From assembly GCA_963785725.1 (NCBI GenBank), contig CAWAWS010000039.1, positions 723,850 to 787,849 on the forward strand: a DNA stretch of 64,000 nucleotides, given 5' to 3'. The stretch comes from an uncultured delta proteobacterium. GTDB lineage: Bacteria; Myxococcota_A; Polyangia; Palsa-1104. Positions 1,707 to 61,145 of this stretch are shown here, piece after piece. Numbering within the stretch: position 1 is the stretch's first letter; each line of letters opens with the position of its first letter. Made by a program: the position numbers and the translations under genes. Below the pieces are notes generated by a model. It searched no databases. It was not told the DNA's origin and saw nothing but the letters and a program-made list of their open reading frames with translations.

Positions 1707-2471
1707 TTACGGCGTGAGGCCGAGCGCCGGCGCGTAGCGCAGCCAGCGGTCGGCGCCGCTCTCGCGCGGCGGCGGCGTCAGCCCCATCGCGACGAGCTGC
1801 CGCCGATGTTCGTCGAATTCCGCCAGCTGCCGCTGCAACCCGGCGCCGACGTGCGCGCACACCGCCGCCGACGCCTCCTGCCCAATCCGCCGCATCGTCG
1901 CCGCCTGCGTCGGCTCGTCGGCGAGCGCCACCAGCTCGAACGTGAAGCGCCGCACGTCGTCGTCGTTCATGCGCGCCGCCGCCGGCGCCACCAGATCGAG
2001 CGCGGCGTTCGCGTCGCCGATGAGCGCGATCGCCAGCGACAGCGGCCAGCCGTCCTCGCGCCGGTCGATCGCGCGCAGCGTCGCCAGCGCGTCGGGCGGC
2101 AGCGGCTCGGCCAAGCTCGACGTCACCGACAGCGCCTCCACCGCCGGCCGCAAGAGCGTGCGATCGCCGTCCTGCAGCTGCGCCAGCGTCGGCGCGACGG
2201 CCGCCAGCACGCGCGCCACGGCCGAGCCCAGCTGCGGGCCGGCGGCGGCCAGCGTCGCCAGCTTCAAGAGGCGCTCGCAGACGAGATAATCGCCCTCGCG
2301 CAGCAGCTCACCGATGGCGAACGGCAGCCGCGAATCCTGCTCGACGAGCGGCACCAGCCACTGCAGCGCCACCTGATCGCCGACGTCGCCGCGCGGCTGC
2401 TCGAACGGCTCCTTGGCTTCGGCGCGCAGCCAATCGATGAGCGGCCCTTTGGCGGGCATCGGCGTTCGCAT
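1707..2471 (-). CDS. alpha-helical hypothetical protein, candidate immunity protein for the upstream DUF4157 toxin
   Basis: Starts 12 nt after the stop of the DUF4157 gene on the same strand. Leu/Ala-rich helical sequence, no signal peptide. Confidence 0.65.
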   Translation of the reverse strand: MRTPMPAKGPLIDWLRAEAKEPFEQPRGDVGDQVALQWLVPLVEQDSRLPFAIGELLREGDYLVCERLLKLATLAAAGPQLGSAVARVLAAVAPTLAQLQDGDRTLLRPAVEALSVTSSLAEPLPPDALATLRAIDRREDGWPLSLAIALIGDANAALDLVAPAAARMNDDDVRRFTFELVALADEPTQAATMRRIGQEASAAVCAHVGAGLQRQLAEFDEHRRQLVAMGLTPPPRESGADRWLRYAPALGLTP

Positions 2472-2483
2472 CGCTTAGCCTAA

Positions 2484-4655
2484 CTAGCCTTTGGCGGTCT
2501 TCGGCGTCGTCGCGGTGCCGGTCGTCGTGCCGGTTGCCGCGGTCGCCGCAGCGCCGGGCGGCGCGCTTCCCGGCGTGGCCGCGGTCGCGGTCGCGGTCGT
2601 CGTCGTCGTGGCTGCCGGCGCGCCGGCGACGGGAGGCTTCTTGTCCGACGGCGCCGTAATCTCGCCCGGCGCACGCGTCGGCGACGGTGCCCCGCGCTCG
2701 TTGTTCGTCGACGTCTTGATGGCGGCGAGCATCTCCTTGATCTTGTCGCCCATCGGGATGGTCATCCCGCCGCGCAGGTACATGTCCGTCAAGTTCGGAA
2801 TCATGCCCTCGAGCGCCTGCTTCGCCTTCGGATCGGTCTCCTTGTCGATGCGCGCTTTGAGCTCGGGATCCTGCTTGAGCGCCTCGTCGCGCGCCTTCTG
2901 GATCGCGTTGCGAATCTCCGTCTCGGTGTCGGCCGTGGGAATGACCGCCTTGGCGTTCTTGACCGCGGAGACCGGCACTTTGCCGGCGAGGAACTCGTTG
3001 GCGCCGCCGCCGGTGACGCCGTACGCCTCGCCCGTCGGCCGCGAGACCCACAGCGAAGACTGCATGCCGTCGTAAGCCGTCGGACGACGCGCCTCCATCG
3101 TGCCCGCGGCCTTGGTCACGTCGACCTCGAACACGATGTTACCGTCGGGGAACCACTCCGGCTGCAGCGCCGCCAGCTCCAAGAGCTGCCCATAGCCCGC
3201 GTCGCTGGCGTTCTTGAGCTTGTAGGAATCGGGCGTAAACCACGTGCCCTTGTCGGGCATGATCGTGCCGCTGCCCTGATGCAGCAGCGGAGTGCCTTTC
3301 TTGGCGTCGTTCTTCCACAGATCGTAGGCGACCTGATCGACGTTGGGCATTCCCGCCGCCAGCGCCTTGTACGCGCCCTGATCGACCGCCGTATACCAAA
3401 AGCCCTTGAGCCCTTGCGTACGCTGCAACGCGTTGGGCAGCTTGCCGACGTCGAGCTTCTTGCCCTTGAAGCGCCAGTCCGCCGCCAGCGTATTCATGCA
3501 CTGGTTGTAGATGGTCTTCGGATTGACGGTCTCGGCGTTCGACTGAATCCACGTCGCCAGCTTGCCGTAAAAGGCCGCGCGCGCCGCCGCATGCCCGCCG
3601 TCTTCCATGTTCACTTCGGCTTTGACGTCGGCCAGCTTCTGCGTCGCCACCGGATCGGCCGCGCAGAACGCGTCGACGTCCGCTTCGCTCTTACACGCCT
3701 TGGCTTTTTCGATCTGCGCTTGCTTGGGATCGGCCGGCGCCGCGCCCGCCGGACCTTTGGCCGCCGGCGCCGCACCGGCCGGAGCGGCCGCCGCCGGACC
3801 TTTGGCTGGCGCGCGATGAATGCGCGTGCCGGCGCCGTAAAATTTGGCCGCGATCGCTGCCGGCTGGGCCGACGGCTTGGCCGCGCCCGCAGCGGCACCG
3901 GCCGCGTGAGCCGCGCCCGCGCCACCTTTGTGCTCGCCACCGGCGCCGCCTTTGTGCTCGCCGCCGGCCGCGTCGCCACCGGCTTTGTCGCCGCCAGCCG
4001 CGCCACCATCCGCTGCGCCGGCTTTGTCGCCGCCCTTTTTGTCGCCGTGCAGATCGCCGGCGACTTTCTCCGACACCGCGTCGGCCTCGACTTCAGCCGG
4101 CTCGTCGGGATTCGAGACTTCGCCGGCGCCGTGCGCGTGCTCGCCCTCGGCGCCTTCGCCGCCGGCCTCGGGCTTGCGCTGAATGCCCGACTTCTGCCCT
4201 TGCACGACGTGCGTCAGCTCGTGCGCGAGCAGCTTGTCGCCCTCTTTCGAGCCGGGCGCGAACTCGCCGCTGTTGAAGTGCACGTCGTTGCCGACGGTGA
4301 ATGCGCGCGCGCCGAGCTGCCCGGCCGCCTCCGCCGAAGACCCCGACGTATGCACGCGCACGCCCGACAGATCGGCGCCGAGTCGCGGCTCCATGCGCGC
4401 GCGCACGCCCTCGGGCAGCGACGAGCCGGCGGCTTGCGGAATCTTGGCCTCACCGGCCGCGCCGCTGGCTTTGCGCATCGCCGCCAGTCGCCGATCCAAG
4501 CTGGCCGCGACCTCTTGCCGCTCGGCGTTCACGGCGTCCATGCGCGACGCGCCGAACAGGCCCGTTTTACGCGGGAGCAGCGACGGCTGTGGATCGGCCG
4601 TGGTGCTCGACTGTCCTGCTTCCGGCGGCTTGTTCGCGCGTCCGCTGTCGCTCAT
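2484..4655 (-). CDS. DUF4157 (eCIS core domain) protein with Gly/Ala linker and putative C-terminal toxin domain
   Basis: LPEGVRARMEPRLGADLSGVRVHT...ARAFTVGNDVHF...LLAHELTHVVQ...IQRK...PAEVEADAV is the DUF4157 signature. C-terminal globular region with RRPTAYDG...GVTGGGANEF. Confidence 0.9.
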   Translation of the reverse strand: MSDSGRANKPPEAGQSSTTADPQPSLLPRKTGLFGASRMDAVNAERQEVAASLDRRLAAMRKASGAAGEAKIPQAAGSSLPEGVRARMEPRLGADLSGVRVHTSGSSAEAAGQLGARAFTVGNDVHFNSGEFAPGSKEGDKLLAHELTHVVQGQKSGIQRKPEAGGEGAEGEHAHGAGEVSNPDEPAEVEADAVSEKVAGDLHGDKKGGDKAGAADGGAAGGDKAGGDAAGGEHKGGAGGEHKGGAGAAHAAGAAAGAAKPSAQPAAIAAKFYGAGTRIHRAPAKGPAAAAPAGAAPAAKGPAGAAPADPKQAQIEKAKACKSEADVDAFCAADPVATQKLADVKAEVNMEDGGHAAARAAFYGKLATWIQSNAETVNPKTIYNQCMNTLAADWRFKGKKLDVGKLPNALQRTQGLKGFWYTAVDQGAYKALAAGMPNVDQVAYDLWKNDAKKGTPLLHQGSGTIMPDKGTWFTPDSYKLKNASDAGYGQLLELAALQPEWFPDGNIVFEVDVTKAAGTMEARRPTAYDGMQSSLWVSRPTGEAYGVTGGGANEFLAGKVPVSAVKNAKAVIPTADTETEIRNAIQKARDEALKQDPELKARIDKETDPKAKQALEGMIPNLTDMYLRGGMTIPMGDKIKEMLAAIKTSTNNERGAPSPTRAPGEITAPSDKKPPVAGAPAATTTTTATATAATPGSAPPGAAATAATGTTTGTATTPKTAKG

Positions 4656-4698
4656 TCCCCGACCCCCGAGTACGAACTATTACAAATTATCACTAGAG

Positions 4699-4725
4699 TT
4701 ATCGGCGGAACGTTCGAAAAGTTGC
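4699..4725 (-). promoter_or_regulatory. sigma28/FliA-like promoter, copy 1 (GCAACTTT-N11-GCCGATAA)
   Basis: Minus strand reads gcaacttt tcgaacgttcc gccgataa, ~44 nt upstream of the DUF4157 ATG. The same motif precedes the two other toxin genes. Confidence 0.75.
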
Positions 4726-4892
4726 TTCCTATTTGGCGCTGCCGCTCGCTGTGATCTCGGTTTCAGCGCGCGGCCGTGTCGCGCCACGGCCGTGGCCGAA
4801 CGCGCGATAGATTCGTGAGCTATTACGATGGCTTGCTTGGGTGTCGCGGAGGCTGTCGAGCGGCGGTGACGAGCGCCGCCGGAGCGGCGTGG

Positions 4893-5588
4893 CTAGATGC
4901 CGACGCTGCCGATCTGCTCGTAGGCCGAGCGCAGCCAGATCTTGACGCGCTGACGCTCGAGGAGGCTGAGGCTCTTGGTGTCGCTGTCGCTCTTGTGCTT
5001 GGCGGCCCAGAAGCTGGTGCTGGCGGCGTCGATCTTGGCGATGACGACCTCGTGCAGCCGCTTGAGCACGATGATCTTGGCGCCCAGCTCGAGCGCGCGT
5101 TCGCGCAGACCCGAGTCCTCGAAGACGTCGAAGTTGTCGCCGCGCAGCTGGTTGAGGACGATCGTGTATTGCAGGCGCGCGCCGAAGCGATCGAACAGCT
5201 TCTTCAGCAGCTCCACCGAATCGCGACCCGAGTCCATGACGTGCCAGTAACGGACGGTGAAGTCGTGGTCGCCGGCGAGCTCGAGCACGCCCGAGTCGTC
5301 CATCCAGCGCGCCAGCGCGTCCTGTGTCTGCGCGGCCAGGTCGACGAGGATGCGCTTGTCGCGATCGGCGGTCGCGGCTTCGACGATCGCGTCCAAGCTC
5401 TCGTAGCGATCGACCACGATCGGCGAGGCGTAGTCGGCGTAGAAGCGCAGCAAGGAGCCGTGCGAGCGATCGGTGTCGAAGCCCAAGAACGGAATGCTCT
5501 CGTCGATGAGGTACTGCGCGACGACCCGCGCCATGACCGACTTGCCGACTCCGCCCTTCTCGCCGCCGATGAGATGAATGTGGCCCAT
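4893..5588 (-). CDS. MinD/ParA-family P-loop protein (MobD-like mobilization protein family)
   Basis: IHLIGGEKGGVGKS deviant Walker A, FDTDRSH, ILVDLAAQ. Confidence 0.8.
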   Translation of the reverse strand: MGHIHLIGGEKGGVGKSVMARVVAQYLIDESIPFLGFDTDRSHGSLLRFYADYASPIVVDRYESLDAIVEAATADRDKRILVDLAAQTQDALARWMDDSGVLELAGDHDFTVRYWHVMDSGRDSVELLKKLFDRFGARLQYTIVLNQLRGDNFDVFEDSGLRERALELGAKIIVLKRLHEVVIAKIDAASTSFWAAKHKSDSDTKSLSLLERQRVKIWLRSAYEQIGSVGI

Positions 5589-5730
5589 GTGCGGCACATT
5601 TAGGGGGCAGGCCGAGAAAAAACGCTAGGAAAAGCTGCGCGCTGTTGCCGAGAATTCGCCGGAAGTTTCAAGCGTGTATCGCGATGATTCGGCGCCGCGC
5701 CGTCGACCCGATGCAGTCGCGCCCGCGAAG

Positions 5731-6627
5731 TCAGCGCGTCAGCGCGACGACGAACTCGAGGAAGGCGCGCAGCTTGGCCGAGTCGCGCTGCGGCGCGTGG
5801 TACGCGTACAGCGGATAGGTCTCGTCGGACCATTCGGGCAACACTTGCACGAGCCGGCCGTCGGCGAGCAGCGTGCGCGCATAAGGCTCGATGAGCTGCG
5901 TCACGCCCTGTCCGCCGAGGCAGGCGGCGAGCAGCGAGCCGGAGTCGCTCACCTGCAAGCGGCCGGCGGCGTTGACCGCGACCACCTTCTTGCCGCGCAC
6001 GAACTCCCAGGCGAAGGCGCTGCCCGTCGCCGGATTGCGCATGAGGACGCACTCGTGCTGCTCGATGTCGCGCGGCTTGCGCGGCGTTCCATGGCGCGCG
6101 AGGTAGTCGGGCGCGGCGCAGGTGATGATGCGCGTGCGCAAGAGCAGCCGCGCCTTGAGCGACGACGGCTCGGGGAAGCCGAAGCGGACGGCGGCGTCAA
6201 AGCCGTCGCTGACGAGGTCGCCCAGCCGATCGCGGACCGCAATGTCGACGAACAGCTGCGGATGGCGCGCCAAGAACGGCTGAATGCGCGGCGTGAGCAC
6301 GAACTGCCCGATGCCGGCGTCGACGTTGACGCGCAGCCGGCCGCGAATCTGCGTCGACGCGTCGGCGGCCTCGCTGGTGGCGTCGGCGATCGCGGCCAGG
6401 TGCGGCGCGATGGCGGTGTAGAAGCGGCGGCCTTCGTCGGTGAGCACGATGGCGCGGACGGTGCGATGGAAGATGCGCACGCCGACGCGCTCCTCGAGGC
6501 GGGCGATGGCGCGGCTGACGGCCGATTGCGTGAGCCCGAGCGCCTCGCCGGCGCGCACGAAGCTGCCGGCCTCGACGACGGCGCCGAGGAGCGCGAGGCC
6601 TTCCAACGACCGCCTGTCAACGCTCAT
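5731..6627 (-). CDS. LysR-family transcriptional regulator
   Basis: VVEAGSFVRAGEALGLTQSAVSRAIARLEERVGVRIFHRT HTH. Divergent from the NmrA/SDR genes. The start may instead be at 6642. Confidence 0.95.
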   Translation of the reverse strand: MSVDRRSLEGLALLGAVVEAGSFVRAGEALGLTQSAVSRAIARLEERVGVRIFHRTVRAIVLTDEGRRFYTAIAPHLAAIADATSEAADASTQIRGRLRVNVDAGIGQFVLTPRIQPFLARHPQLFVDIAVRDRLGDLVSDGFDAAVRFGFPEPSSLKARLLLRTRIITCAAPDYLARHGTPRKPRDIEQHECVLMRNPATGSAFAWEFVRGKKVVAVNAAGRLQVSDSGSLLAACLGGQGVTQLIEPYARTLLADGRLVQVLPEWSDETYPLYAYHAPQRDSAKLRAFLEFVVALTR

Positions 6628-6735
6628 GAGACCTACTTTCATGCATGTCGAGGCTTCCGAGTATGCACGTGCGGCAGTCTCGGCGAGGCGGCAATCTCAC
6701 CTACCACTAGTCCAACCGAGCGAGGCTGAATACGC

Positions 6736-7620
6736 ATGATCGTCGTCACCGCACCCACCAGCAACATCGGCCGCCAGGTCCTCGAGAATGTTTTGCGCGG
6801 CAACGAAGCCGTCCGCGTCATCGCGCGCGATCCGGCGCGCTTGCCGGCGGCGACGCGGGCGCGCGTCGAGGTCGTGACCGGCTCGCACGGCGACGCCGAC
6901 GTCGTCGAGCGCGCGTTCGCCGGCGCGCAGTCGGTCTTCTGGCTGGTGCCGCCGAATCTGCGCGCGCCCAGCGTTTTGGCCGCGTATGTCGACTTCACGC
7001 GACCGGCGTGCGCCGCTTGGCGCCGCCACGGCGTCGCGCGCGTCGTCGGCGTGTCGGCGCTCGGGCGCGGCGTGGTCGAGCGCGCCGGGCTCGTCAGCGC
7101 GGCCTTGGCGATGGATGATCTCATCGCCGGCAGCGGCGTCGCTTATCGCGCGCTGACCCTGCCGTCGTTCATGGAGAATATCCTGCGCCAGGTGGAGCCG
7201 ATTCGCAGTCGCGGGCTGTTCTTCGGGCCGATCGCCAGCCAGCTGAAGGCGCCGACCTGCGCCACGCGCGACATCGCCGCGGTCGCCGCCAAGCTGCTGC
7301 TCGATCACACGTGGAGCGGCAACGGCAGCGCGCCCGTGCTCGGGCCCGAGGATCTGTCGTTCGACGAGATGGCGCAGATCATGTCGGAGGTGCTCGGCAA
7401 GACGGTGCGCTACGAGCAGCTCTCGAGCGCGGCGTTCGCGGCGCGGCTCGGCGAGCAGGGCGCCTCGCCGGCGATGATCGCGGGCATGGTCGACATGATG
7501 ACGGCCAAGAACGCCGGGCTCGACAACGCCGAGCCGCGCACCCGCGAAAACACGACGCCGACGAGCTTCCGGCAGTGGTGCACGGAGATCCTGAAGCCGG
7601 CCGTCGCCCTGAATCTTTAA
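6736..7620 (+). CDS. NmrA-like NAD(P)H-binding protein
   Basis: MIVVTAPTSNIGRQV Rossmann-like start, FMEN, ATRDIAAVAA, GPEDLS. Confidence 0.9.
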   Translation: MIVVTAPTSNIGRQVLENVLRGNEAVRVIARDPARLPAATRARVEVVTGSHGDADVVERAFAGAQSVFWLVPPNLRAPSVLAAYVDFTRPACAAWRRHGVARVVGVSALGRGVVERAGLVSAALAMDDLIAGSGVAYRALTLPSFMENILRQVEPIRSRGLFFGPIASQLKAPTCATRDIAAVAAKLLLDHTWSGNGSAPVLGPEDLSFDEMAQIMSEVLGKTVRYEQLSSAAFAARLGEQGASPAMIAGMVDMMTAKNAGLDNAEPRTRENTTPTSFRQWCTEILKPAVALNL

Positions 7621-7695
7621 CCAACCACGCTAAATATTAACCAATGGGTTAAGTGGTTGCGATGCGCCGGTCAATGAACGAATAGGAGACGAGAG

Positions 7696-8451
7696 ATGCA
7701 GCTCAGTGGCAATACGATCCTCATAACCGGCGGGACGAGCGGCATTGGACGGGCGCTCGCCGAGGCCTTTCATCAGCGCGGCAATCAGGTGATCATCGCC
7801 GGGCGGCGCCGCGCGCTGCTCGACGAGATCACGGCTGCGCACCCGGGGATGCACGGGCTGCAGGTCGACGTCGACGATCCGCGCGCGCTCGCGGTCTTCG
7901 CGGCGGAGCTTCGGCGGCAGTTTCCCACGCTGAACGTGCTCATCAACAATGCCGGGATCTCGCGACGCGAGGACCTTCGCAACGGTGAGCGTGACGTGGC
8001 CGCGGCGCTGGCGATGATCAACACCAATATCGTGAGCGTCTTGCAGTTGACGGCGGCGCTGTTGCCGCTGCTCGAGCGGCAGCCGCGCGCGACCGTGATG
8101 GCGACGACGTCGGGCTTGGCGTTTCTACCGCTCGCCGATTATCCGACGTACTGCGCGACCAAGGCGTTCCTGCATTCGTGGTTGCAGTCGCTGCGCTCGC
8201 AATTGCGCCAGACGTCGGTGGAGGTGCTCGAGCTCATTCCGCCTTATGTGCAGACCGAGCTGAGTGGGGCGAGCCAGGCGACGGATCCGAATGCCATGCC
8301 GCTGGCAGATTATGTCGCCGAAGTGATGCGGGCGCTGGCGGAGCCGCAGCCGGCGCGCGGGGAGATCCTCGTCGAGCGGGCGGCGGCGCTGCGCTGGGCG
8401 GAGCAGAACGGGCAGTACGATCGGCTGTTCAGCGCGCGCAACGAACGCTGA
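7696..8451 (+). CDS. short-chain dehydrogenase/reductase (DltE-like)
   Basis: TILITGGTSGIG, LINNAG, YCATKA catalytic YxxxK, GGAG RBS. Confidence 0.95.
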   Translation: MQLSGNTILITGGTSGIGRALAEAFHQRGNQVIIAGRRRALLDEITAAHPGMHGLQVDVDDPRALAVFAAELRRQFPTLNVLINNAGISRREDLRNGERDVAAALAMINTNIVSVLQLTAALLPLLERQPRATVMATTSGLAFLPLADYPTYCATKAFLHSWLQSLRSQLRQTSVEVLELIPPYVQTELSGASQATDPNAMPLADYVAEVMRALAEPQPARGEILVERAAALRWAEQNGQYDRLFSARNER

Positions 8452-8564
8452 TTTGAGCTTCGGTGGCGGCGTATCGGGCGTGGATTCGCCAGCTCGAGCG
8501 CGTGGCACAAAGCGTCCGGCCGACTCGATGCCCTCGATGCGCGGCTTCTAATCGTCCACGACGC

Positions 8565-9584
8565 TCAATGCCGGAGCGCGCGCGGCAATACGTACTGCGC
8601 GACATAGGTACGCAGCTTGGCGCGGGTGTCGTCGTCGAGCTGCAGCGTCACGTCGGGCATGATGCGCGAGGCGATCTCGTAAACGACGAAGAGATCGAGC
8701 TGGTGGTGAAAGGCCGAGTCGCTCAGTCGATCGAGCTGCGGCTCGGCCGCGACCTTACCTTTTTGCGTCTGATAGGCGGCGATGAGGTTGGCGAGGCATT
8801 CGTAATCCTGATTGTTGGTCCAGCCGGAGCTCCTCGGCATCTCGCCCAGCCAATAGGCCTTACACATGGCGAAGGCGATCCAGTGCGGCGTTTTGTCCGC
8901 CTCGAGGCGAATGTGCTCGGCGTCGACGCGATAGACGGCGGCGTGCGGCGCGAACGGCTGATCGTAGGGGACGATGCCGAGCCGCGCCGCCTCGCCGTGC
9001 GCGATGCTCAGCGCCGTCGGATTGCGCGGCCGCAACGTCAGCGTGTCGATGAGCGCCTCGCGCGCCTCGTCGAAGCGCATGAGCTTGATGAGCGCGTCCG
9101 CGCGATAGAGGTGGCCGCGATAGTGGTTGGGCGCGGCGGCGACCGCTCGATCGTAGGCCGCCAACGCCTCGGTCGGCTGCGCCGCGGCCAGGAAACAGTC
9201 GCCGATGTAGAGATCGAGGAACCAGGACGACGGCGAGAGGCGCTTGGATTCCTCGTATTTCTTGCGCGCGCCGTCCCAATCCTTGGCCTTGAACAGCCGT
9301 TCGGCGTCGGCGAGCGCCGGCTTGGCGGGCGCGGCCACCTCGCCGCAATCGACGAGCTGGCGCTTGCCGGCGACGACGCGGACGTCGGGGCAGTCGCGCG
9401 CGTGCCCTTCGGGCCACAGCGCCGCCGCGCTCTTGAGCTCGCCTCCGGCCGGCAGCTCCGCCACTTTATAGGTGATCTTCGAGCGCTCCATCGCCGCTTG
9501 ATAGTCGGCCAGCGTGTGACCGGGGCTCTCGGCCCAGGCGACGCTCGAGGTCAACAGAACGGCGATCGTCCACGGCGCATGCAT
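8565..9584 (-). CDS. secreted TPR-containing protein
   Basis: Signal peptide (TIAVLLTSSVAWA) and TPR-like helices (EALAAYDRAVAAAPNHYRGHLYRADAL). Confidence 0.8.
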   Translation of the reverse strand: MHAPWTIAVLLTSSVAWAESPGHTLADYQAAMERSKITYKVAELPAGGELKSAAALWPEGHARDCPDVRVVAGKRQLVDCGEVAAPAKPALADAERLFKAKDWDGARKKYEESKRLSPSSWFLDLYIGDCFLAAAQPTEALAAYDRAVAAAPNHYRGHLYRADALIKLMRFDEAREALIDTLTLRPRNPTALSIAHGEAARLGIVPYDQPFAPHAAVYRVDAEHIRLEADKTPHWIAFAMCKAYWLGEMPRSSGWTNNQDYECLANLIAAYQTQKGKVAAEPQLDRLSDSAFHHQLDLFVVYEIASRIMPDVTLQLDDDTRAKLRTYVAQYVLPRALRH

Positions 9585-9626
9585 GGGATGACTTTACCGC
9601 CGTTGGGTTAGAATTTTCGCCTCCGC

Positions 9627-9653
9627 TGTCGATTGGCGCGCGCCGCGTTCGTA
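9627..9653 (+). promoter_or_regulatory. ECF42-type promoter (TGTCGA-N17-CGTA)
   Basis: tgtcga ttggcgcgcgccgcgtt cgta directly upstream of a YciI/ECF42 remnant. Confidence 0.5.
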
Positions 9654-9680
9654 TAGAAGCCGAAAGAGAGGCGCTTCCCC

Positions 9681-9956: not shown

Positions 9957-9960
9957 GCGC

Positions 9961-11592: not shown

Positions 11593-11638
11593 GTCGTTGG
11601 CGTTTACAGCGGACGCGCAAAATCTCCGCGTGAAAGCG

Positions 11639-11685
11639 CGCAATCGATATCGGCCGCGGACGATTCCGCTCCGATATCGATTGCG
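11639..11685. terminator. 15-bp perfect inverted repeat between convergent genes (probable bidirectional terminator)
   Basis: cgcaatcgatatcgg (11639-11653) / ccgatatcgattgcg (11671-11685). Confidence 0.6.
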
Positions 11686-51980: not shown

Positions 51981-52135
51981 AGGTTGGAAGTCGCGACGAA
52001 ACATCGATGAGCCGCGGGGCGAGCCAGCATCGCCACCAACCGCGCTTTCGCCGTCGCGACGGACATAGTCGGTGGGTACGGCACCGTTCGTCTCACGCGG
52101 TGCCTTCGTGAAACAGATCAATGCCCGGAGAGGCC

Positions 52136-53434
52136 ATGAGCGAGCACGCTGAAGATTCGACTATCGGACAACAGATGCATGACTTTGCAAAGCTGCTCTG
52201 GCCGATCTGTCGCAGTTTGTCCGGCGATGGCGTGCGGCAAACGCTGCAACTGATCCGAGAGCGATTGCCGGCACTTCAGATTCATGAAGTGCCATCTGGG
52301 ACGAAGTGTTTCGATTGGGAAGTCCCAGACGAATGGAACATCCGCGACGCTTATATCATTGCGCCCGACGGGCAGAAGATCGCCAACTTCAAGACTAATA
52401 ACCTGCACGTGGTTGGCTACTCCACGCCCATCAATGCGGAGATGCCCCTCGAGGAGCTGCGGCCGCACTTGTTCTCCTTGCCCGCGCAGCCGACCGCGAT
52501 TCCCTATATTACGTCCTATTACAAACGCTTTTGGGGATTCTGCATCTCGCACGAGCAACTGACTGCATTGAAGCCTGGCAACTACCGCGTTGTCATCGAC
52601 AGTGAGCACAAAGCCGGCTCGCTTACGTATGGCGATTTGGTCTTACCGGGCGAGACCGAAGACGAGATCTTACTGTCGACCTATGTTTGCCATCCTTCGA
52701 TGGCCAACAACGAGCTGTCCGGTCCCCTCGTGACGCTGGCTCTCGCGCAATGGCTCACGACGTTACCGCGACGCCGCTACACTTACCGCATCTATTTCGG
52801 CCCCGAGACGATCGGCGCCGTCGTCTACCTGAGTCGTCATTTGGAGGCGATGAAGCGAGTTACCCGGGCAGGGTGGGTAGTCACCTGCGTGGGCGATGAC
52901 CGAGCCTATTCGTTCTTGCCGAGCCGAGAAGGCAACACGTTCGCTGATCAGCTGAGCCGACACGTGCTCCGTCACTGCACCCCTGCGCCGAAGGAGTACT
53001 CGTTCCTCGACCGGGGCAGCGACGAGCGTCAGTACTGCAGCCCAGGGGCCGACTTGCCCGTATGTTCCATCATGCGCAGCAAGTATGGCGAGTATCCCGA
53101 GTACCATACTTCGCTCGATGACTTATCGCTGGTCACTCCGTCAGGACTCCTGGGCGGATATCGCATGATAAAGAAGTGCATCGAGTTGGCCGAAGCCAAC
53201 AGATCTTATCGAACGAAACTGCCGTGCGAGCCGCAGTTAGGTAAGCGCGGCCTCTATCCGTCGCTGAGCACCAAAGAGTCGGGCGCAATGGTCAAGACCA
53301 TGATGGATTTCCTGGCGCATTGTGATGGCCACCTCGATTTGCTCGCGATCGCCGAGCGGATTGGCGTCTACGCGCACGAGCTCGCTCCGTTGGCCGAGAA
53401 ACTCACCGGTGCGGGAGTGATCGAGCCGGTCTGA
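52136..53434 (+). CDS. DUF4910 (DUF2172 + peptidase M28-like + wHTH) protein
   Basis: RSLSGDGVRQTL, FDWEVPDEWNI, AIPYITSYY, CHPSMANNELSG, PETIG, GSDERQYCSPG, YPEYHTS. Confidence 0.95.
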   Translation: MSEHAEDSTIGQQMHDFAKLLWPICRSLSGDGVRQTLQLIRERLPALQIHEVPSGTKCFDWEVPDEWNIRDAYIIAPDGQKIANFKTNNLHVVGYSTPINAEMPLEELRPHLFSLPAQPTAIPYITSYYKRFWGFCISHEQLTALKPGNYRVVIDSEHKAGSLTYGDLVLPGETEDEILLSTYVCHPSMANNELSGPLVTLALAQWLTTLPRRRYTYRIYFGPETIGAVVYLSRHLEAMKRVTRAGWVVTCVGDDRAYSFLPSREGNTFADQLSRHVLRHCTPAPKEYSFLDRGSDERQYCSPGADLPVCSIMRSKYGEYPEYHTSLDDLSLVTPSGLLGGYRMIKKCIELAEANRSYRTKLPCEPQLGKRGLYPSLSTKESGAMVKTMMDFLAHCDGHLDLLAIAERIGVYAHELAPLAEKLTGAGVIEPV

Positions 53435-53783
53435 CGCTAGCTGCTGTCGCAGATCGCTCGCCGCGCGGTGGATGTGCTGGAGGATGCACAGTTCTGGGAA
53501 TCGCAGGACGGGAGCCGTGAAAACATCAGAAGGCTACTGGAAACCGATTTGTGATCTTGTGAAGCGGCTCAATTGATGGAGTCGGCTGGCCGCCAGCGAC
53601 GCCACGCAATCATCGCTGGCCTCGTACATGACGACGGCTGCGGCTGCGTCGACGTATGTTCCGCAATCGACGTTGGCCAAGCTTGAGAAGCAGCGCAGAG
53701 CGCCGTCTCGCGCCGTGCCGCGCCCTGCTCACAAATCTGTCGACGGACGGCGATAGGCGCCGGCGTCACACGAACCGCCCCGT

Positions 53784-54812
53784 TTATTTCGCCAGTCGCG
53801 TCTGCGCGCGCGCCGCGCCCGTCGCATCGTTACCGTGAAGATCCAAGTAGCGCTGATAGTGGAACAGCGCGTTAGCCTTATTGCCCTGGTCCCACCAATA
53901 GTCGGCAAAATACAGCTCGGCCGGCGGGTATTTTCCGCGTAGCGACTCGTTCATCGCTGCCAAGAAATCCGGCTGATGCGTCTTCCCCAGCTTATCGTGA
54001 GAAAGTGCTAACCAATAATACAGCTCGGGGATCCCGACAGTCCCCCGCTTTGCGGTCATGAGGCTGTCAACGGCCGCCGAATATTTCCCTACCTTATACA
54101 GACGAATGCCTTCCTGCATATCTAGTGCAATCTGCTCAGGCGTTTTGCTATCGCGCTCAGCACTTGTTCCGAGCCCCGGGATCGATTCAATGAACGCGGT
54201 CATGACCTGTGCGGCGAACACGGGCTTGACCGCGGGCTGTCCCGGCATCAGGAAGCAGAACGCGATCTTGCCATTGCCGCGCGAGCTCACGACAGCATCA
54301 GCCGGGGGCAACGCACTGGGATTTTGGCCCTCGACCGACTTTGCATCATCGAGTTGCATCTGAACTTCGACCCCGGCGCTGCTCGACCAAGCGACGCCCC
54401 AACCGGACGCACCGCAAATCGACGCCGTCCCGTTGCTAGCGCCACGCGAAATCGGCGCATTCTTCGTATGTGTATTCACCCAGCCCACGAGGGACTGGCG
54501 GCGCTTCCCTTCCGCCAGGCTCATCGTGAGGCTGACGGCAGCCACTCCGTCGCCACCATCGCGACGAACGAACGCGCGGTCGAACGGCGGGGGCAACTTC
54601 ACGGCCGCTCCCGGCACGTCGTCCGCGATCGGGATAGTCAGCTCGACATGAGCGCCGCGTAAACCAGTTGTGCACTGCGAAAAGCGAGCGCCTGGCACGC
54701 AACCTTCGAGTGCCTGCCCTAGCACGGAGCTCGCCTCGGCGCGCGCCAGCCTCGAAGTGCCATGCGCCGTGACCATCACAAGACCGCAAAACAAGAGTGC
54801 GCGTTTGCTCAT
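53784..54812 (-). CDS. secreted protein with C-terminal TPR, candidate second immunity/accessory protein
   Basis: Signal peptide, TPR-like end (ALFHYQRYLDL); third gene of the operon headed by the PG hydrolase. Confidence 0.7.
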   Translation of the reverse strand: MSKRALLFCGLVMVTAHGTSRLARAEASSVLGQALEGCVPGARFSQCTTGLRGAHVELTIPIADDVPGAAVKLPPPFDRAFVRRDGGDGVAAVSLTMSLAEGKRRQSLVGWVNTHTKNAPISRGASNGTASICGASGWGVAWSSSAGVEVQMQLDDAKSVEGQNPSALPPADAVVSSRGNGKIAFCFLMPGQPAVKPVFAAQVMTAFIESIPGLGTSAERDSKTPEQIALDMQEGIRLYKVGKYSAAVDSLMTAKRGTVGIPELYYWLALSHDKLGKTHQPDFLAAMNESLRGKYPPAELYFADYWWDQGNKANALFHYQRYLDLHGNDATGAARAQTRLAK

Positions 54813-54833
54813 CTCATTCTCACTTAATGAAGC

Positions 54834-55412
54834 CTAATGCTGGGCACTTGCGGATTTGCCAGCGAAGGTGACTGATTTAAGCATTTGCTCGAAGTCGCTC
54901 TTGGCGCCCGAATAGCTCTCCGCTTTGCAAAGCAAAATAGCGTCGACGATCGTTGTTTGATGTTTTCCCTGTTTGAACTGGAAGGACGCAACGTCTGCGA
55001 CCGCCTTTGGACTCGAGCACTGGGTGACGGTACGGGCGAGCTTGGCGGTTGGCGAACCGATCGGCTGCGCGTCTTCGCAGTCGTTGAATCGGACTGTAGC
55101 CGCACCAATCGCCGCGAATACGTTCTTTTCGCCAGCGGCTTGCTTCGTTCGATTCTGCAGACCAGTCGCGTCGACCGTAAGCTCGCTGCAGCCGTCGGCC
55201 GTGGTGCATTCCTCGCGATCGATTTGGACGACGCATCCGTTGGGGCCGCGAAAGCTGCCGACGCGAACGGCAGCAGCTTTGGGATCGACGGCAACTTTCG
55301 TCCACCCGGCGGGAGGATCGATCATCAGCTTCGGCGCCAGCTCGTCGGCGAGAGATTCCGTCGTCAGACTGACGCTAACGAAGCCGAGGACGAAGAATCC
55401 AAACGTTCTCAT
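54834..55412 (-). CDS. signal-peptide protein, candidate periplasmic immunity protein (PsbP/DcrB-like pattern)
   Basis: MRTFGFFVLGFVSVSL signal; IDPPAGW...DFEQMLKSVTF; overlaps the 3' end of the hydrolase gene. Confidence 0.7.
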   Translation of the reverse strand: MRTFGFFVLGFVSVSLTTESLADELAPKLMIDPPAGWTKVAVDPKAAAVRVGSFRGPNGCVVQIDREECTTADGCSELTVDATGLQNRTKQAAGEKNVFAAIGAATVRFNDCEDAQPIGSPTAKLARTVTQCSSPKAVADVASFQFKQGKHQTTIVDAILLCKAESYSGAKSDFEQMLKSVTFAGKSASAQH

Positions 55413-58398
55413 TGAAGACAAAATGCTTCTTCTCCATGTGGTTGAACGTCGTGCTCTTGGACATCTGATGCTCATGCGCCTTCTCGCTGCCTGCGCCAAT
55501 AGCGGTCACTTCTCGAAGCTGTCCCGTACCTTCGTCGCGGATGACGTCGCTGAGCAACTCGATGTGCCCATGGCCCTCTTCTTTCATGCCGGTCTTCGAG
55601 TTGACGTGCATTCCACCATGCCCATCTTGCCGGAACTTGCCGCGAACGATCACGACATCGCCTGACTGAGCGTTGTGCTCAGGATCCTGAACGACGTCGA
55701 ACCACTGTGCGCCATGCAGTGGCTTCGCGCCTTTGGCAACGGCTTCGATATCGTCGCACATACCATTCACGTCAGGATACTTCACTGTCGGCTCGTGGTT
55801 CTCATCGGAACCCGCCGTCATGAACCCCGATCGGTAAAGGAATTCACCGACGAAGATGTTGCACTTGAAATTGCCGGCGTAACCACCTTTCTTTTCGCCA
55901 CTCTGAAACGCCGGATGACTCAGCTTCTCGTCTTTGATCGAGCCAGCTTGGCCCCACGACGCGTCGCCATCCTTCAATCGCGCCGCCGACAACATCTCGT
56001 CGACATGTTTCTTGCGGTCGACGTCTTCGCCAGCAGGCGCCTCTTTGGATCCCCCAGCCGCTTGCTCCTTCGCTGCCGGTTCTTTGCTTTTCTCTTCTGC
56101 TACGTCGGCGGGCTTATTGACCTGCGCTCCGGCGAGAGCGGCAGCTGCCTTTTGGCCGAGGTCGGTAACCTCACCCTCCAAGCTTTTGTCGTACTCCTCG
56201 ATTTGCTTTTGCGCGTCCTCGACCTTGAGCTCGCCCTTGCCAACTCGACCTGCGAGCTCTACGCCACGCTCTCGCAATCGCTCCGCAACGATATCCCGAT
56301 CCGATTTCCAGAAGGTGACCGTCTCCCAAATCGTCCGCTCGACGTCGTGTTTCTCGTGATGCTCAGGCGGTCCCTTCGCGCTGCCAACGTTGCTCGGTGC
56401 CTTCTCTTTGGCGGGCCCAGCACCGGGCGCAATCTTGGTATTGTCGTGCTGTGCCACAGCCGAACCGGCGCCCTTTCCGCCCTTTGCCGGCGGAACATTG
56501 CCGCGGTAGATCGCCATCACCTTGCTAACGTACTCGTCGTGCTCGAGTAGCGACGGGTTCTCTATCTCCTCTTTCGAGAGACCTCCGTTATGCATTCGGG
56601 CGCATAACATGTACAGCTCGTCGTCCGACTTGGGCAGCTCGACCTTGAAGCGCTTGGCCTGCGCGACGACACGCTTGCGGACGTCTTCGACCTCTTTCTT
56701 GCCAAAGCCGACCGCGCCATCTGCATTGATGGCCTTCGACAGATGCCCTTGTCGACCGCCGGCCGCCTTCATCTGAAACCCGGCCAAGTTCTCGGCCATG
56801 ATTCCCTCGACGCTGCCTTGCTTGCCCTTGTTCATGTAGGCTGCGAGGTCGCCCGGTCCCAACTGAATCCGATCAAAGACGGCCTTGTTGTCGTCATAGA
56901 ACTTGTGCGCGGCTTCCATACGCGCCTTCTTATTCTTGTCGCCCACCAGCGCAGCATGGCTGGAGCGATATTCGCGGATCAGGCGACGGAACTCGATGCT
57001 GCCGATGAGACGATCGAGATCGCCTTCGCCTAGCCCGGTCGAAGTCGTCCAGGCATCGCGATGCTTGGCGATGAACCGCTCGGGATCGGTCTTGGCCAGC
57101 TCGACTTCGGCCGCATTCCACTGCAGCGCCTTCTGAGCGCGTCCCTGTTCCGCTTCACCCTTCGAACCTGACCGGCCCACCAACGCGGAATAGTACTGGG
57201 CGACAGCAGCGGTCTTCTGCTTCAAATCCGCGACTTCACTCTCGCTGAAGCCGTACTTTGCGCGCAGATCCGGATCATGCTCGAGCATGTCGATCGCACT
57301 GCTGGCGACCGTTTGGAATCGACCATACGACCCTTCGACCCCCGATGCGTTGCGAAGGTCGGTTCCGACGACACCGTCCTTATCAGGAGCCGCATTTCCG
57401 GATTCCTTGACGCCGATAGCGTAGACGAATCGATCCCAGCTGCTCCCTGACGCAGGCGGCGCCGCTGCAGAACCAGCGTTGGCGCGAGCATCGGCTGCTG
57501 GCTTCGCCGGGGCCGATGCCAACGACGACGCGTTCGCTGTGACGATAGCCTTGAGCTTGTGGCCCGCCGCGGCCTTGGACGCGGCGCCCTTGTGGCCGAG
57601 CGAATGCTTCTTCTCGTCGGACTTCGGTGGCGCGGAGTCCGCGGCAACAGCGGGCTTGGCCGCCGGTGCCGCGGCGTCTCCAGCGCTCTTTTCGTCGGCC
57701 TGTTCTGCGACAGGTTCCGCGGAGTGGTCAGCCGGCTGTTCGACGGCGGCTTCAGCTTTCTCGTTGCCGCTGTTTCCCGCATCGACTTTTAGGGCGCCAA
57801 ACAAGTCGTCGAGCTCCGCCGCTTGCGTAGGCTTCGGCTCGGAATCCGTGGCGCCTGCCCCCGAGTCAGAAGATTCGCCGGCTGTTGCCGCCGGAGCGCT
57901 GCTGACGTGCTCGGTGGTTTCGGCCTGCGCTAATGCAGCATCCGCCTTGCCAGCATCGCCTTCGGAGGAGGGGACCGCCTCTTTTTCTTCCTGTGCAGGC
58001 TTTCCCGTGTCGGAATCGACGGCTTCCACCGGCGCCGCCGCTGCGCTCTCAGGCTCCTTGGAGCTGGGAACCGTCGTGGGTGCGGCCGTCGCGCGATCCG
58101 TCGCAAATGCATCGTCGGTCTTCTGGTCCGGCTCCTGCGCCCATTCGGGCGTGAGGATACCGTCCGCCGACCCCGCTGCGGCTGGAGCCGAATCAGCGCT
58201 GCCAGCCTTTGCCTCGGCTTGGGCGCGACGGCGTTGCTGGAATTTCCGGTAGAGCGCGTTCGCGGCCGCGACGTTGCCCTTCGTGACGGAAAGGAACAGG
58301 GTCATCGGCGAATTCGTTGGCCCGGCGTCAACGTCAGCCGACGCGGGCTCGCGACCGCCGTCAATCGTACCCTTATTTTTCTGGTCGAGCTCGCCCAT
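55375..58398 (-). CDS. large putative peptidoglycan-hydrolase effector: disordered N-terminus, lysozyme-like domain, C-terminal NlpC/P60/CHAP-like domain
   Basis: AIGVKESG...YGRFQ...ARMHNGG...YVSKV; KCNIFV...SGDVVI...GHGHIE; no Sec signal; ATG 58398 lies below the shared promoter motif. Confidence 0.7.
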   Translation of the reverse strand: MGELDQKNKGTIDGGREPASADVDAGPTNSPMTLFLSVTKGNVAAANALYRKFQQRRRAQAEAKAGSADSAPAAAGSADGILTPEWAQEPDQKTDDAFATDRATAAPTTVPSSKEPESAAAAPVEAVDSDTGKPAQEEKEAVPSSEGDAGKADAALAQAETTEHVSSAPAATAGESSDSGAGATDSEPKPTQAAELDDLFGALKVDAGNSGNEKAEAAVEQPADHSAEPVAEQADEKSAGDAAAPAAKPAVAADSAPPKSDEKKHSLGHKGAASKAAAGHKLKAIVTANASSLASAPAKPAADARANAGSAAAPPASGSSWDRFVYAIGVKESGNAAPDKDGVVGTDLRNASGVEGSYGRFQTVASSAIDMLEHDPDLRAKYGFSESEVADLKQKTAAVAQYYSALVGRSGSKGEAEQGRAQKALQWNAAEVELAKTDPERFIAKHRDAWTTSTGLGEGDLDRLIGSIEFRRLIREYRSSHAALVGDKNKKARMEAAHKFYDDNKAVFDRIQLGPGDLAAYMNKGKQGSVEGIMAENLAGFQMKAAGGRQGHLSKAINADGAVGFGKKEVEDVRKRVVAQAKRFKVELPKSDDELYMLCARMHNGGLSKEEIENPSLLEHDEYVSKVMAIYRGNVPPAKGGKGAGSAVAQHDNTKIAPGAGPAKEKAPSNVGSAKGPPEHHEKHDVERTIWETVTFWKSDRDIVAERLRERGVELAGRVGKGELKVEDAQKQIEEYDKSLEGEVTDLGQKAAAALAGAQVNKPADVAEEKSKEPAAKEQAAGGSKEAPAGEDVDRKKHVDEMLSAARLKDGDASWGQAGSIKDEKLSHPAFQSGEKKGGYAGNFKCNIFVGEFLYRSGFMTAGSDENHEPTVKYPDVNGMCDDIEAVAKGAKPLHGAQWFDVVQDPEHNAQSGDVVIVRGKFRQDGHGGMHVNSKTGMKEEGHGHIELLSDVIRDEGTGQLREVTAIGAGSEKAHEHQMSKSTTFNHMEKKHFVFNENVWILRPRLR

Positions 58399-58449
58399 CA
58401 CAATCCCTAGCTCTTTAGAGTATATAAACGGCGCACGCCGCCATATAGG

Positions 58450-58476
58450 TTTTCGGCACGACCTCGAAAAAGTTGC
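58450..58476 (-). promoter_or_regulatory. sigma28/FliA-like promoter, copy 2 (GCAACTTT-N11-GCCGAAAA)
   Basis: Minus strand gcaacttt ttcgaggtcgt gccgaaaa. Confidence 0.7.
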
Positions 58477-58694
58477 TTCCAACAGAGGCGCGAAAGTTCG
58501 ACTTCCGCCGGAGCCGCATGCCGCAGTGGAGTGAGGTGAGGTGACCGCCATCACCGCGCCGGGAACAAAGCTCCGTTGACGAACCCGGTCGCCATGACTC
58601 AGGACAGCTGATTGCGATGTGTCAGCACGGTCGGTCGAATTGTAACGCTCGATTCCGTTTCCCCCGAGCCCCACTGATTTCTTGCGGGTACATG

Positions 58695-58721
58695 GCAACT
58701 TTTCTTCAGTTTCGCCGATAA
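58695..58721 (+). promoter_or_regulatory. sigma28/FliA-like promoter, copy 3 (GCAACTTT-N11-GCCGATAA)
   Basis: gcaacttt tcttcagtttc gccgataa, 17 nt before ATG 58739. Confidence 0.75.
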
Positions 58722-58738
58722 TCTGAAGAAGGACGCAG

Positions 58739-60480
58739 ATGAGCGACTCCGGCAAACTCCCTCGACCCGAAACAACGGCCGAAACGCGATCGTCGAGCGA
58801 CGGCGAGCGCCGCCCCGTGCTCGAAGGCGCGGAAGTGACCCGCCGGCGAACCGCTGACGAGCTCGCCTATCGCACGTCAGGGGGCACAGCGGGCGTGGCG
58901 CCGATGCAGCGTCTCATGGACGAGCGCACGGCGATGGGAGCGCAATTGGCCGGACGCATTCAGCGCAAGGCCGAGGGGCAGCCTCGCGGCGGTGTGGCGA
59001 TGCCGGAAGGTGGCGGCTCGGGGTTGACGTCGCAGCAGCGCCAGCGATTCGAGCCCAAGCTCGGTGCAGATCTGTCGGATGTTCGGGTCCATACAGGCGG
59101 CGCGTCGGCACATGCTGCGGCGGGGCTGAGCGCGCGCGCGTTCACCGTCGGCAACGACATCCATTTCAATTCTGGCGAGTTTGCTCCGGGCGCGAAGGAG
59201 GGGGATCGCCTTCTCGCCCACGAGCTCACGCATGTCGTGCAGGGCAAGAAGACCGGCGTGCAACGTAAGGCAGACGAGCATTCCGCTGCCGGCGATGAGT
59301 CACACGGCGCCGCCGGTCAGACGGACGTTTCGCATCCGGATGAGCCGGCCGAGAAAGAGGCCGATGCTGTTGCCGATGGCGTGACGAAGTCGCTGCACGA
59401 AAAGTCGTCGGCCGGCGGCGAGCATGCCAAGGCGACGGGAGCTGACGCAGCCAAGGGTCCGAAAGAGGCGCCTGCTCCCATCGCTGCAAAATTCATCGGA
59501 GTCGGGACCAAGATTTTTCGTGCGAAGGACCAGGGCGCGCCAGCCGCAGGCGGCCCGAACGCGGCGGCGCCGGACAAAGCGAGCCTCAAAGTCGACGCCA
59601 AAGCGGAGCCCAAAGCCGATCCGCCATTGCCGACCGCAGCATCGCGGGATGCGGGCGCGTGGGGCGCGTACGGCGCGAATTGGAGCGGCCTCTTCCTTCC
59701 GAAGCTCAAGGAGAACGGCATCTCGGAAGCCACCATCGCTTCGCTCGCCGCCAAGAAGAGCGCTTGGTTCGAAGACGCATACAGCTGCGTCGAGATGGGC
59801 AAGGATCATCATCCGTCGTCAATCGAATCTTCGCTGAGATTCCCAAGGAGCCGGAAGGGCAAGAGCGGCACTTTTGGTCGGGCGGCGGACCAGCGCAGGG
59901 CATGGCCGACCAAGCGATCGCGAACAAAGGCAAGATGGCCACGCCTGCGGGTGCAGGTCCAGGTCCAGGTGCACCTGCACCTGCAGGCGCAGGTCCGGCG
60001 AATGCCGGTGGGGGAACGCCGCAGAAGGCGATGCGGCTCGAGACGAGCCACGTCGGAATCCTGTTCAATGGCGTCTTCAATCAACCGCCCTCGCGACTCG
60101 ACTGGTCGAAACAGGCCATTCGGTTCTGGCAGCGCGCGTCGACGAACTATGCCAAGGCGACGACCGGAAACGTGACCGCGCACCTCAATGTCGATTTCAA
60201 GTACGCCAAGGATCAGAAAGTAAATCGCGGCGCGATCTTCGGGGCGCTCGAATTGCCGGAAATCGTCACCAACATGAAGTTGCGTTCGCCCGCCGGTGAA
60301 ACCGTCGTCAAGTCGCTCGTGCTCGATTTGTGGGTTCACGGCGCGACGAAAGACGCGAAAGGCAAAGACAAGGAAATCGACAAGAAGTTGGGCTTTACAG
60401 TCATCGCCGATCCTGCCGTGAACGAGGCGCAGATTCTCGACTCGATCGATGCGCAGATTCAACTCGCAGTGAATTCGTAA
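58739..60480 (+). CDS. DUF4157 protein with C-terminal ADP-ribosyl-cyclase (CD38-like) toxin domain; frameshift near 59810
   Basis: DUF4157 LLAHELTHVVQ. After a 1-nt shift the frame gives HFWSG...RLETSHVG...FWQRASTNYAKATTGNVTAHL...IFGALELPEI. Confidence 0.8.
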
Positions 60481-60489
60481 AGGCTGAAC

Positions 60490-61145
60490 ATGGCTGGACA
60501 CACGGCTGCATACGACGAGTTCTTGTTTAGCTTCAATGGCGGGCTCGAGTTCAAAGACGACCTCGACCTCGATGCGTACGGTCGCGCGACGTCGGCGGAG
60601 CGTGCCGAGCTCGATCGCATTCTCGAGCAGAAGTTACCGGACGGGGACCCGCGCGTGGCACGCGCGATCAGGGCGCTTTGGCCGGCGGACAAGGCGACGG
60701 CACTTTTGACGCGCGCGCTTGCGTCGACATCACCCGCCGACCGCGTGGGAATCGCTCGCGCGCTGCGCTCGGTGGCGGAATCGAGTCATCGTTGGATGCG
60801 TTGCGCACGGCGCTGTTCGACGAGCGTGCGTCGACCGACGCGCGCTTGGCGGCCGCGGACGCTTTGGGCGAAATCGAAGGCGCGCCGGCAAACTTCTCGC
60901 TGAAGGCGGCGCTCGACGAGCCGTTGCCCGAGCTGCAGAAGCGCGTCGCCGAGCTGCTGTTCCGGCGTACTGGGCTCGAACGCTTGGCCGGCGACAGTGC
61001 GAGTGGCGCGGCTTTACTAGGCCGCTTGCTGCATGATTCCGACGAGGCAACACGCCGCGGCGCGATCGCCGAGCTGAAGCGAGTCGTTGACAGCGGATCG
61101 GCCGAGATGGCGGATCAGAAACGGGGCGACGCCCGAACCACTTAG
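60490..61145 (+). CDS. HEAT-repeat protein, candidate immunity; frameshift near 60770
   Basis: Starts 9 nt after the toxin stop. ORFs 60490-60903 and 60678-61145 join into HEAT-like repeats (ARLAAADALGEI, LHDSDEATRRGAIAEL). Confidence 0.7.

Follow-up and report, generated by a model that had tools for sequence, protein, structure and literature searches.

Two DUF4157 carriers with unrelated toxin-like tips and adjacent partner genes in a polyangian genome that encodes an extracellular contractile injection operon

The window analysed here, a stretch of 64,000 nucleotides, forms the final 64 kb of contig C39 in a genome of 8.9 Mb that is 88% complete and has 68% GC, and the best named protein relatives of its genes are labelled Myxococcales or Polyangia. 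It carries two cassettes, each made of a toxin-like gene with a DUF4157 domain (toxins A and B) and a closely following partner gene (partners A and B). The two toxins share a carrier and end in unrelated C-terminal domains, here called tips; among homologous cassettes, tips have been exchanged between carriers and partners covary with tips, and the genome encodes the operon of an extracellular contractile injection system (eCIS). We consider it probable that these are cassettes of polymorphic DUF4157 toxins and their partners, the toxins being likely loaded into an eCIS and injected into rival bacteria, both tips being predicted to act on NAD+, and the partners being likely protective.

A shared carrier, exchanged tips and covarying partners

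Toxins A and B both start with MSDSG, lie 54,084 nt apart, are 44% identical over 311 columns of their N-terminal parts, and carry the motifs VS(N/H)PDEPAExEADAV and IAAKF(Y/I)G(A/V)GT(R/K)I(H/F)RA, the second of which we call the junction; after it, the two proteins have no similarity (Table 1). Open reading frames (ORFs), PF13699 matches and sequence identity thus agree with a first-pass annotation of the window, which had described two MSDSG genes with a DUF4157 core and shared motifs that diverge completely past the junction. It had also taken gene B to be a whole gene, overlooking the frame changes in toxin B and partner B. The MSDSG start was rejected as an invariant signal, as the family also starts with MGDSG, MSDGG, MSDVG or MSERP.

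Table 1. Features of the two cassettes in the window
Feature	Position	Strand	Remarks
Toxin A, 723 aa	2484..4655	-	low-complexity leader, DUF4157, VSxPxEPAExEAD motif, Gly/Ala linker, junction motif, predicted ADP-ribosyltransferase-fold tip
DUF4157/eCIS_core of toxin A, residues 80-155, HELTH	4191..4418	-	PF13699 E 9.5e-31, above cut-off
VSNPDEPAEVEADAV motif of toxin A	4074..4118	-	other families of the order also have it behind DUF4157
Junction motif IAAKFYGAGTRIHR of toxin A	3813..3854	-	
Tip A core, residues 391-577	2925..3485	-	predicted ADP-ribosyltransferase fold, no Pfam match
Partner A, 254 aa	1707..2471	-	likely immunity protein, no Pfam match
Toxin B	58739..60480	+	same carrier with ADP-ribosyl-cyclase-like tip; frame change near 59,810
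DUF4157/eCIS_core of toxin B, residues 96-171	59024..59251	+	PF13699 E 7.5e-30, above cut-off
VSHPDEPAEKEADAV motif of toxin B	59327..59371	+	
Junction motif IAAKFIGVGTKIFR of toxin B	59480..59521	+	
ADP-ribosyl cyclase/CD38-like domain (FWSG, LETS, WxxxSxxYA, ELP)	59800..60480	+	frame of ORF 59659-60480
Partner B, HEAT-like	60490..61145	+	likely immunity protein; frame change near 60,785

Homologues were collected from 40 regions around a selection of the listed PF13699 matches in ten relatives, and 41 further genomes of the order were surveyed, 14 from the same family and 27 from two other families (L-numbers denote fetched regions, G000 the source genome and C-numbers its contigs). The source genome has eight PF13699 matches in seven genes. 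Hidden Markov models (HMMs) trained on 22 relatives alone found exactly five carriers among its 107,847 six-frame segments, namely those of toxins A and B, C7:7187-9496, C3:531015-532847 and C3:534748-535467; a sixth, more distant DUF4157 gene has a barnase domain and is followed by a barstar gene. The carrier profile matched eight of the 14 same-family genomes, gave weak matches only in six of the 27 genomes from the other two families, and was not found in 300 genomes sampled across the phylum, where at most 20 candidates were scored per genome. The junction pattern was present in 28 of the 45 HExxH-bearing ORFs of the 40 regions, one of them doubtful, with the consensus PAxI(A/S/G)AK(L/F/Y)xGxGRKI(F/Y)R and variable spacing, which is broader than the motif first proposed.

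The C-termini collected from these regions showed differing tips on homologous carriers, as the first-pass annotation had anticipated, and this ruled out invariant C-termini. Domains of the colicin-E3, EndoU, Ntox15 and Tox-GHH types all follow this same junction. Seven of the 32 scanned C-termini passed Pfam cut-offs, as Cytotoxic (colicin E3-type), EndoU, Ntox15, DUF2380 (twice), DUF6883 and Ribonuclease (barnase), of which we take DUF2380 and DUF6883 to be toxin nucleases. In a tree of 38 carriers from which linkers and tips were excluded, and in which 15 of the 35 inner branches are unresolved, the carrier of toxin A groups with one bearing an ADP-ribosyl cyclase (ARC) tip (98/92), and that of toxin B with three ARC and three ADP-ribosyltransferase-fold (ART) carriers (96/80); ART tips require at least four changes on the starred branches. 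Toxin type does not follow the carrier tree, which indicates that tips have been exchanged between carriers.

As first noted from the letters alone, each tip is closely followed by a different gene: the gaps are 12 nt (A) and 9 nt (B), and the two partners have no mutual BLAST similarity. Of the accompanying description of both partners as alpha-helical cytoplasmic proteins, the helical nature of partner B has support from a sub-threshold HEAT_2 match (E 1.4e-5), that of partner A being judged by eye only and the cytoplasmic location by eye for both. Across 26 entries, in which the two pieces of toxin B were entered separately, eight of the 12 pairs with related tips had related partners, as against three of the 312 pairs with unrelated tips. 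A partner-A profile recognised 14 of 24 held-out tip-A loci, four of these 14 being near-copies of training loci, and none of 40 control loci; in three of the ten misses the locus stops at the toxin. When tip A is internal to a protein, the partner is the second gene downstream or lies upstream on the opposite strand, and in L099 a single protein with both tips is flanked by both partner families. Partner B resembles the genes that follow ARC tips in L049, L118 and L099 (36, 28 and 24%). Judged from these sequence relationships, the adjacent partners likely protect the producer as immunity proteins.

The genome also encodes a candidate delivery machine. An eCIS operon at C13:1-11,398, which runs to the contig start, comprises Pvc16, sheath, gp19 tube, sheath, gp19 tube, CIS_tube and GPD hub genes, and it continues on C9 with gp25, baseplate J, FHA proteins, AAA ATPases and a short DUF4157 gene; the ends of C13 and C9 share an overlap of 758 nt (98.5%), and C7 carries a gp5-OB gene. 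The first-pass proposal of orphan toxin-immunity cassettes of one eCIS-type system is thereby supported, with the operon on other contigs, known toxin domains behind the same junction, carrier-tip incongruence and tip-partner covariation all agreeing with it.

Several related loci were seen alongside these. A recurring unannotated tip (AxGPSGTT...GYLLPIxAH) in L066, L068, L079, L100, L104, L106 and L107 is always followed by a Cys-rich partner (GCNxLxC...C.GHP), and the three such tips that were scanned had no Pfam match. At L012 (G000 C3:530,590-536,143), two divergent cassettes lie in an island that also contains insertion sequence (IS) elements and a gene resembling serine recombinases; by eye, one tip shows a nucleotidyltransferase-like GS...DxD motif, the other stands on a carrier that lacks DUF4157, and neither has a Pfam match. 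At L013 (G000 C7:5,860-9,496), near tRNA-Arg, a carrier has a metallopeptidase-like tip with a second HExxH, and the genes after it encode a lipoprotein-like partner and a CpXC protein. L015 (G000 C33:170,037-181,994) encodes a 3985-aa protein that has DUF4157 twice and ends in a histidine-kinase ATPase domain, for which a signalling rather than a toxin role is possible; DUF4157 frames of 2,200-4,600 aa recur in relatives. A tRNA scan found none in the window, and 20 tRNA genes lie on one strand within 4.4 kb at G000 C3:124,966-129,345.

Predicted activities of the two tips

The core of tip A has conserved R412, W472, ALQPEW, RxPTxxDG and GxTGGGxxE554 elements. Its predicted model (mean predicted local distance difference test score, pLDDT, 91) has a split-sheet ART core, on whose strands R412, W472 and E554 are placed; the basic Arg on the first core strand and the acidic Glu on a late strand are conserved, as the ART fold requires. 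Structure comparison by VIA gave Tpt1 9ld3 (Z 6.7, rmsd 2.7, 94 aligned) and 7yw4 (Z 6.5) as top rows, Tne2 at Z 6.0 (rmsd 3.6, 104 of 119 residues aligned) and SPN at Z 5.0 (rmsd 4.9, 131 aligned); nearly all of the best 50 rows are ART-fold proteins. Foldseek returned nothing at E 0.001 or better, its top row being SPN (E 0.058), and sequence searches of the Protein Data Bank (PDB), Pfam and NCBIfam gave no relevant match. An atlas search yielded leads that were all under 0.9, including a TNT row at 0.86 that is a lead only; TNT is absent from the 50 VIA rows. Because the scores are middling (no Z of 8 or more) and Foldseek is without a match at E 0.001, we regard the ART fold of tip A as likely and any activity as tentative. 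One protein search found 28 relatives of tip A and another 76 representatives at 50% identity, mostly in Myxococcota-labelled genomes; 22 of the 69 aligned members contain DUF4157, and the remainder have disordered leaders and in some cases a second toxin-like domain.

On the strength of the model, we lean slightly towards tip A being an NAD+-using ART-fold enzyme, a glycohydrolase like Tne2 and SPN. A serious but less favoured alternative is that it is an ADP-ribosyltransferase or a Tpt1-like enzyme that modifies RNA, DNA or protein. This would fit the top VIA rows, which are Tpt1/KptA and then DarT, Scabin, TreX and TreTu, as well as the conserved Arg and Glu; against it, Tne2 lies within one Z unit and is almost wholly covered, SPN aligns the most residues (131-155) and tops Foldseek, and the ART fold does not tell transfer from hydrolysis (PMC13285283).

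Two further sets of loci touch tip A. More distant tips in L048, L057 and L059 with (R/K)PTAxD...GxTxxG..E motifs probably belong to its ART-like superfamily; L059, the only one scored against the tip A profile, reached E 2.5e-8. At G000 C14:405,358-406,630 (minus strand), adjoining tRNA-Pro, a carrier-less, frameshifted tip-A-like remnant (E 5e-7) is accompanied by a partner remnant.

Tip B can be placed with greater confidence. It matches PF02267 at E 6.3e-5, under the cut-off, and a seven-sequence profile matched ARCtox 9ro8 (E 0.0012), Tac1 9ouf (0.021), Aplysia cyclase (0.049) and CD38 (0.14); as a single query, it found one longer protein and two matches in one other genome of the 41. 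Toxicity of ARCtox needs two Trp and two Glu residues (PMC12605009), and W26, E81, W110 and E151 of tip B (piece 59800-60477) align with the ARCtox motifs, their equivalence being drawn from the alignment. From these similarities, tip B very probably hydrolyses NAD(P)+ like Tac1 and ARCtox.

As assembled, the toxin B ORF is not intact and its frame shift falls inside the toxin domain, whereas all ARC-domain motif residues are kept; P0096, a natural relative of 593 aa with no break, matches both pieces (56% for the first, 75% for the second). Cassette B sits 3-4 kb from the contig end. In this genome, splits affected seven of the 140 testable gene pairs that lie no more than 8 kb from a contig end, as against none of 141 in interiors (198 pairs having been sampled for each). 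Because split genes were seen near contig ends and in none of the interior pairs, we regard assembly error as the more plausible cause of the broken frames, with reasonable rather than strong confidence. The other reading, a decaying pseudogene pair within a mobile island, is clearly less favoured yet has real weight: both toxin and partner are frameshifted, the stretch has a GC content of 57-64% as against 68% genome-wide, an IS66 element lies directly downstream, and a decayed related cassette is present on C14. It has to contend with the distribution of split genes, with the retained motif residues, and with the C13/C9 overlap, where two assembled versions of one locus differ by two gaps in 758 nt.

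The IS66-type element at the contig end (window 62045-64000) is itself frameshifted and has related copies on C33, C22, C5, C3 and C14. Head-to-head with toxin B, window 53784-58398 (minus strand; ORFs 55375-58755, 54834-55499 and 53784-54812) encodes a 1007-aa protein that starts with a disordered leader and has a lysozyme/SLT-like middle (atlas 0.91-0.92) and, by eye, a Cys/His amidase-like end; two genes with signal-peptide-like N-termini follow it. This locus has no homologue in the 41 other genomes of the order, and it is possibly a cell-wall toxin without DUF4157, accompanied by periplasmic immunity.

Loading, delivery and the junction

In the explanation we prefer, the disordered leader would direct loading via the eCIS AAA+ ATPase, as in Algoriphagus cargo, and the cargo would be injected by the eCIS into rival bacteria. 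In the target, tip B would hydrolyse NAD(P)+ and tip A would use NAD+ through its ART fold, more likely as a glycohydrolase than as a transferase, while in the producer each partner would bind and block its own tip. The junction would be a protein-level boundary ending in (K/R)I(F/Y/H/Q)R, with the tips behind it exchanged by ordinary recombination in the conserved carrier.

Three carriers in three genomes (C3:534748, L135 of G002 and L136 of G010) are free of DUF4157 and keep the leader, one xxRK motif, the VSxP motif and IxAKL; that of L136 ends in Tox-GHH. Carriers that do contain DUF4157 usually have it flanked by two xxRK motifs with a spacing of about 100 residues. Loading of AlgoCIS cargo needs the disordered N-terminus and not DUF4157 (bioRxiv 10.64898/2026.05.27.728243), and the natural DUF4157-free carriers agree with the report that the domain is dispensable for loading. 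We can speculate, although we think it doubtful, that the cargo tag is the short leader together with the VSxPxEPAExEAD and PxIxAK...RKIxR motifs rather than DUF4157, which would be an optional insert of 100 residues between the two xxRK motifs, and that the junction is where the DUF4157 peptidase frees the tip, in cis or in trans, or where the loading ATPase takes hold. If so, the DUF4157-free carriers would represent a minimal eCIS loading and processing signal of about 125 residues, and tip A would be the founder of a new family of antibacterial toxins that destroy NAD and are matched by an immunity family of their own.

It is also conceivable that particle and cargo act inside the producer, in programmed lysis or a stress response, with the pairs as toxin-antitoxin modules. 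Self-intoxication has been raised for eCIS toxins (PMC8213781) and intracellular roles of contractile injection systems have been reported for Streptomyces; nevertheless, high tip turnover with tip-specific partners fits competition between cells, as does the partner on C7, which has a signal peptide and lipobox by eye, and we consider action inside the producer unlikely.

Delivery by a type VI secretion system (T6SS) appears still less likely. The genome encodes TssB/TssC, Hcp-like, TssE and ClpV-like genes on C22, and DUF4157 is sometimes found in T6SS effectors (PMC11297309). Among carrier-bearing genomes of the same family, however, the eCIS sheath is present in eight of eight and the T6SS protein VipB in one of eight, two of those without evidence of VipB being only about 50% complete; VipB was found in none of four same-genus genomes, and C22 has no DUF4157 match. 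The carrier therefore tracks the eCIS sheath and not the T6SS among relatives, and the T6SS was rejected as the main carrier on account of this poor co-occurrence and the lack of DUF4157 linkage on C22.

The first-pass annotation had further suggested that the junction might mark a recombination, processing or chaperone-binding boundary, and the first of these roles is disfavoured. Junction codons vary synonymously as freely as those around HExxH, which leads us to conclude from the sequences that the junction is conserved at the protein level, not as DNA. It is confined to one family. That it is a DNA site for site-specific recombination is highly improbable: carrier similarity does stop right after it and some cassettes adjoin tRNAs or a serine recombinase, but its codons include both Ser families (TCN 6, AGC 4) and Ala as GCC 13, GCG 10 and GCA 3, and the spacing from IxAK to RKIxR differs by two or more residues. 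In other families, DUF4157 is likewise followed by the VSxP motif, there with a simpler RKIQR element, and we infer that the junction is a lineage-specific form of the carrier end seen elsewhere as RKIQR.

Besides the near-copies among the held-out loci and the incomplete relatives already mentioned, several observations weigh against the interpretation of eCIS-delivered, NAD+-acting toxins with protective partners. Most C-termini (25 of 32) have no toxin-family match, and the source genome itself encodes a T6SS. The fold scores of tip A are middling, its two top rows are RNA 2'-phosphotransferases and not NADases, and its best Foldseek row falls short of E 0.001. The ARC relative L051 is followed by an unrelated 97-aa gene; comparison of partner A with a distant partner family gave an hhalign probability of 2%, which is not significant; and a leave-out HMM ranks partner A first in the genome, yet only at E 0.048-0.29. 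Finally, both genes of cassette B are broken and adjoin IS66 in a lower-GC stretch.

Relation to known systems

The toxin class itself is not new. DUF4157 (PVC-metallopeptidase) polymorphic toxins have been known since 2012, and DUF4157 proteins have been described as polymorphic eCIS toxins (Zhang et al. 2012, PMC3482391; PMC8213781; PMC11297309), as have ART-fold NADases (PMC13285283). Earlier papers name as open both what DUF4157 does in eCIS cargo and the rarity of immunity genes next to eCIS toxins that act on bacteria (PMC11297309; bioRxiv 10.64898/2026.05.27.728243; PMC8213781). A literature search, which covered main texts and few subscription papers, found no account of the junction, of eCIS cargo with ARC tips or of a family with the motifs of tip A; the supplement of PMC3482391 may list tip A under another name. 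The terms 'eCIS' and 'DUF4157' are absent from the main text of the papers on ARCtox and Tac1 (PMC12605009; PMC12356396).

Like the PVC-metallopeptidase toxins (PMC3482391), the toxins described here occur in several copies per genome alongside an eCIS/PVC machine and join variable toxin domains at the C-terminus to a constant N-terminal DUF4157 that has HExxH. Many of those toxins lack adjacent immunity genes, whereas partners are the rule here, and the HExxHxxQ-E signature reads HELTHVVQG. PMC3482391 lists Tox-ARC only with type II, V, VI and VII secretion systems (T2SS/T5SS/T6SS/T7SS) and Imm74/Imm63, whereas here ARC stands on a DUF4157 carrier with a HEAT-like partner. The cargo proteins Cgo1 and Cgo2 of AlgoCIS likewise have a disordered N-terminus, DUF4157 and a variable C-terminus (bioRxiv 10.64898/2026.05.27.728243); in contrast to them, the cassettes of this genome lie scattered a long way from the eCIS operon and the carrier ends in a family-specific junction motif.

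As regards the tips, the WSG, LE(S/T), WxxxSxxYA and ExP motifs of tip B align with those of ARCtox (9ro8, PMC12605009) and Tac1 (9ouf, PMC12356396), toxins for which NAD(P)+ depletion and downstream immunity have been demonstrated. Tip B differs from them in being very divergent (single-sequence E 0.36), in its eCIS carrier and in its HEAT-like partner, and it extends ADP-ribosyl cyclase toxins to eCIS carriers. Tip A shares a predicted split-sheet ART core with Tne2 (6b12), SPN (3pnt) and Tpt1/KptA, but has no sequence match to them in Pfam, NCBIfam or the PDB, has helical N- and C-terminal additions, and bears its own motif set (R, WFTP, ALQPEW, RKPTAxDG and GVTGGGxxE). It is an uncatalogued putative toxin with a predicted ART fold and a partner family, the toxin family being one without a Pfam model. 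The natural paired carriers with and without DUF4157 are also new and make the role of the junction testable, and the lineage offers a sharp conserved boundary together with many tip-partner pairs.

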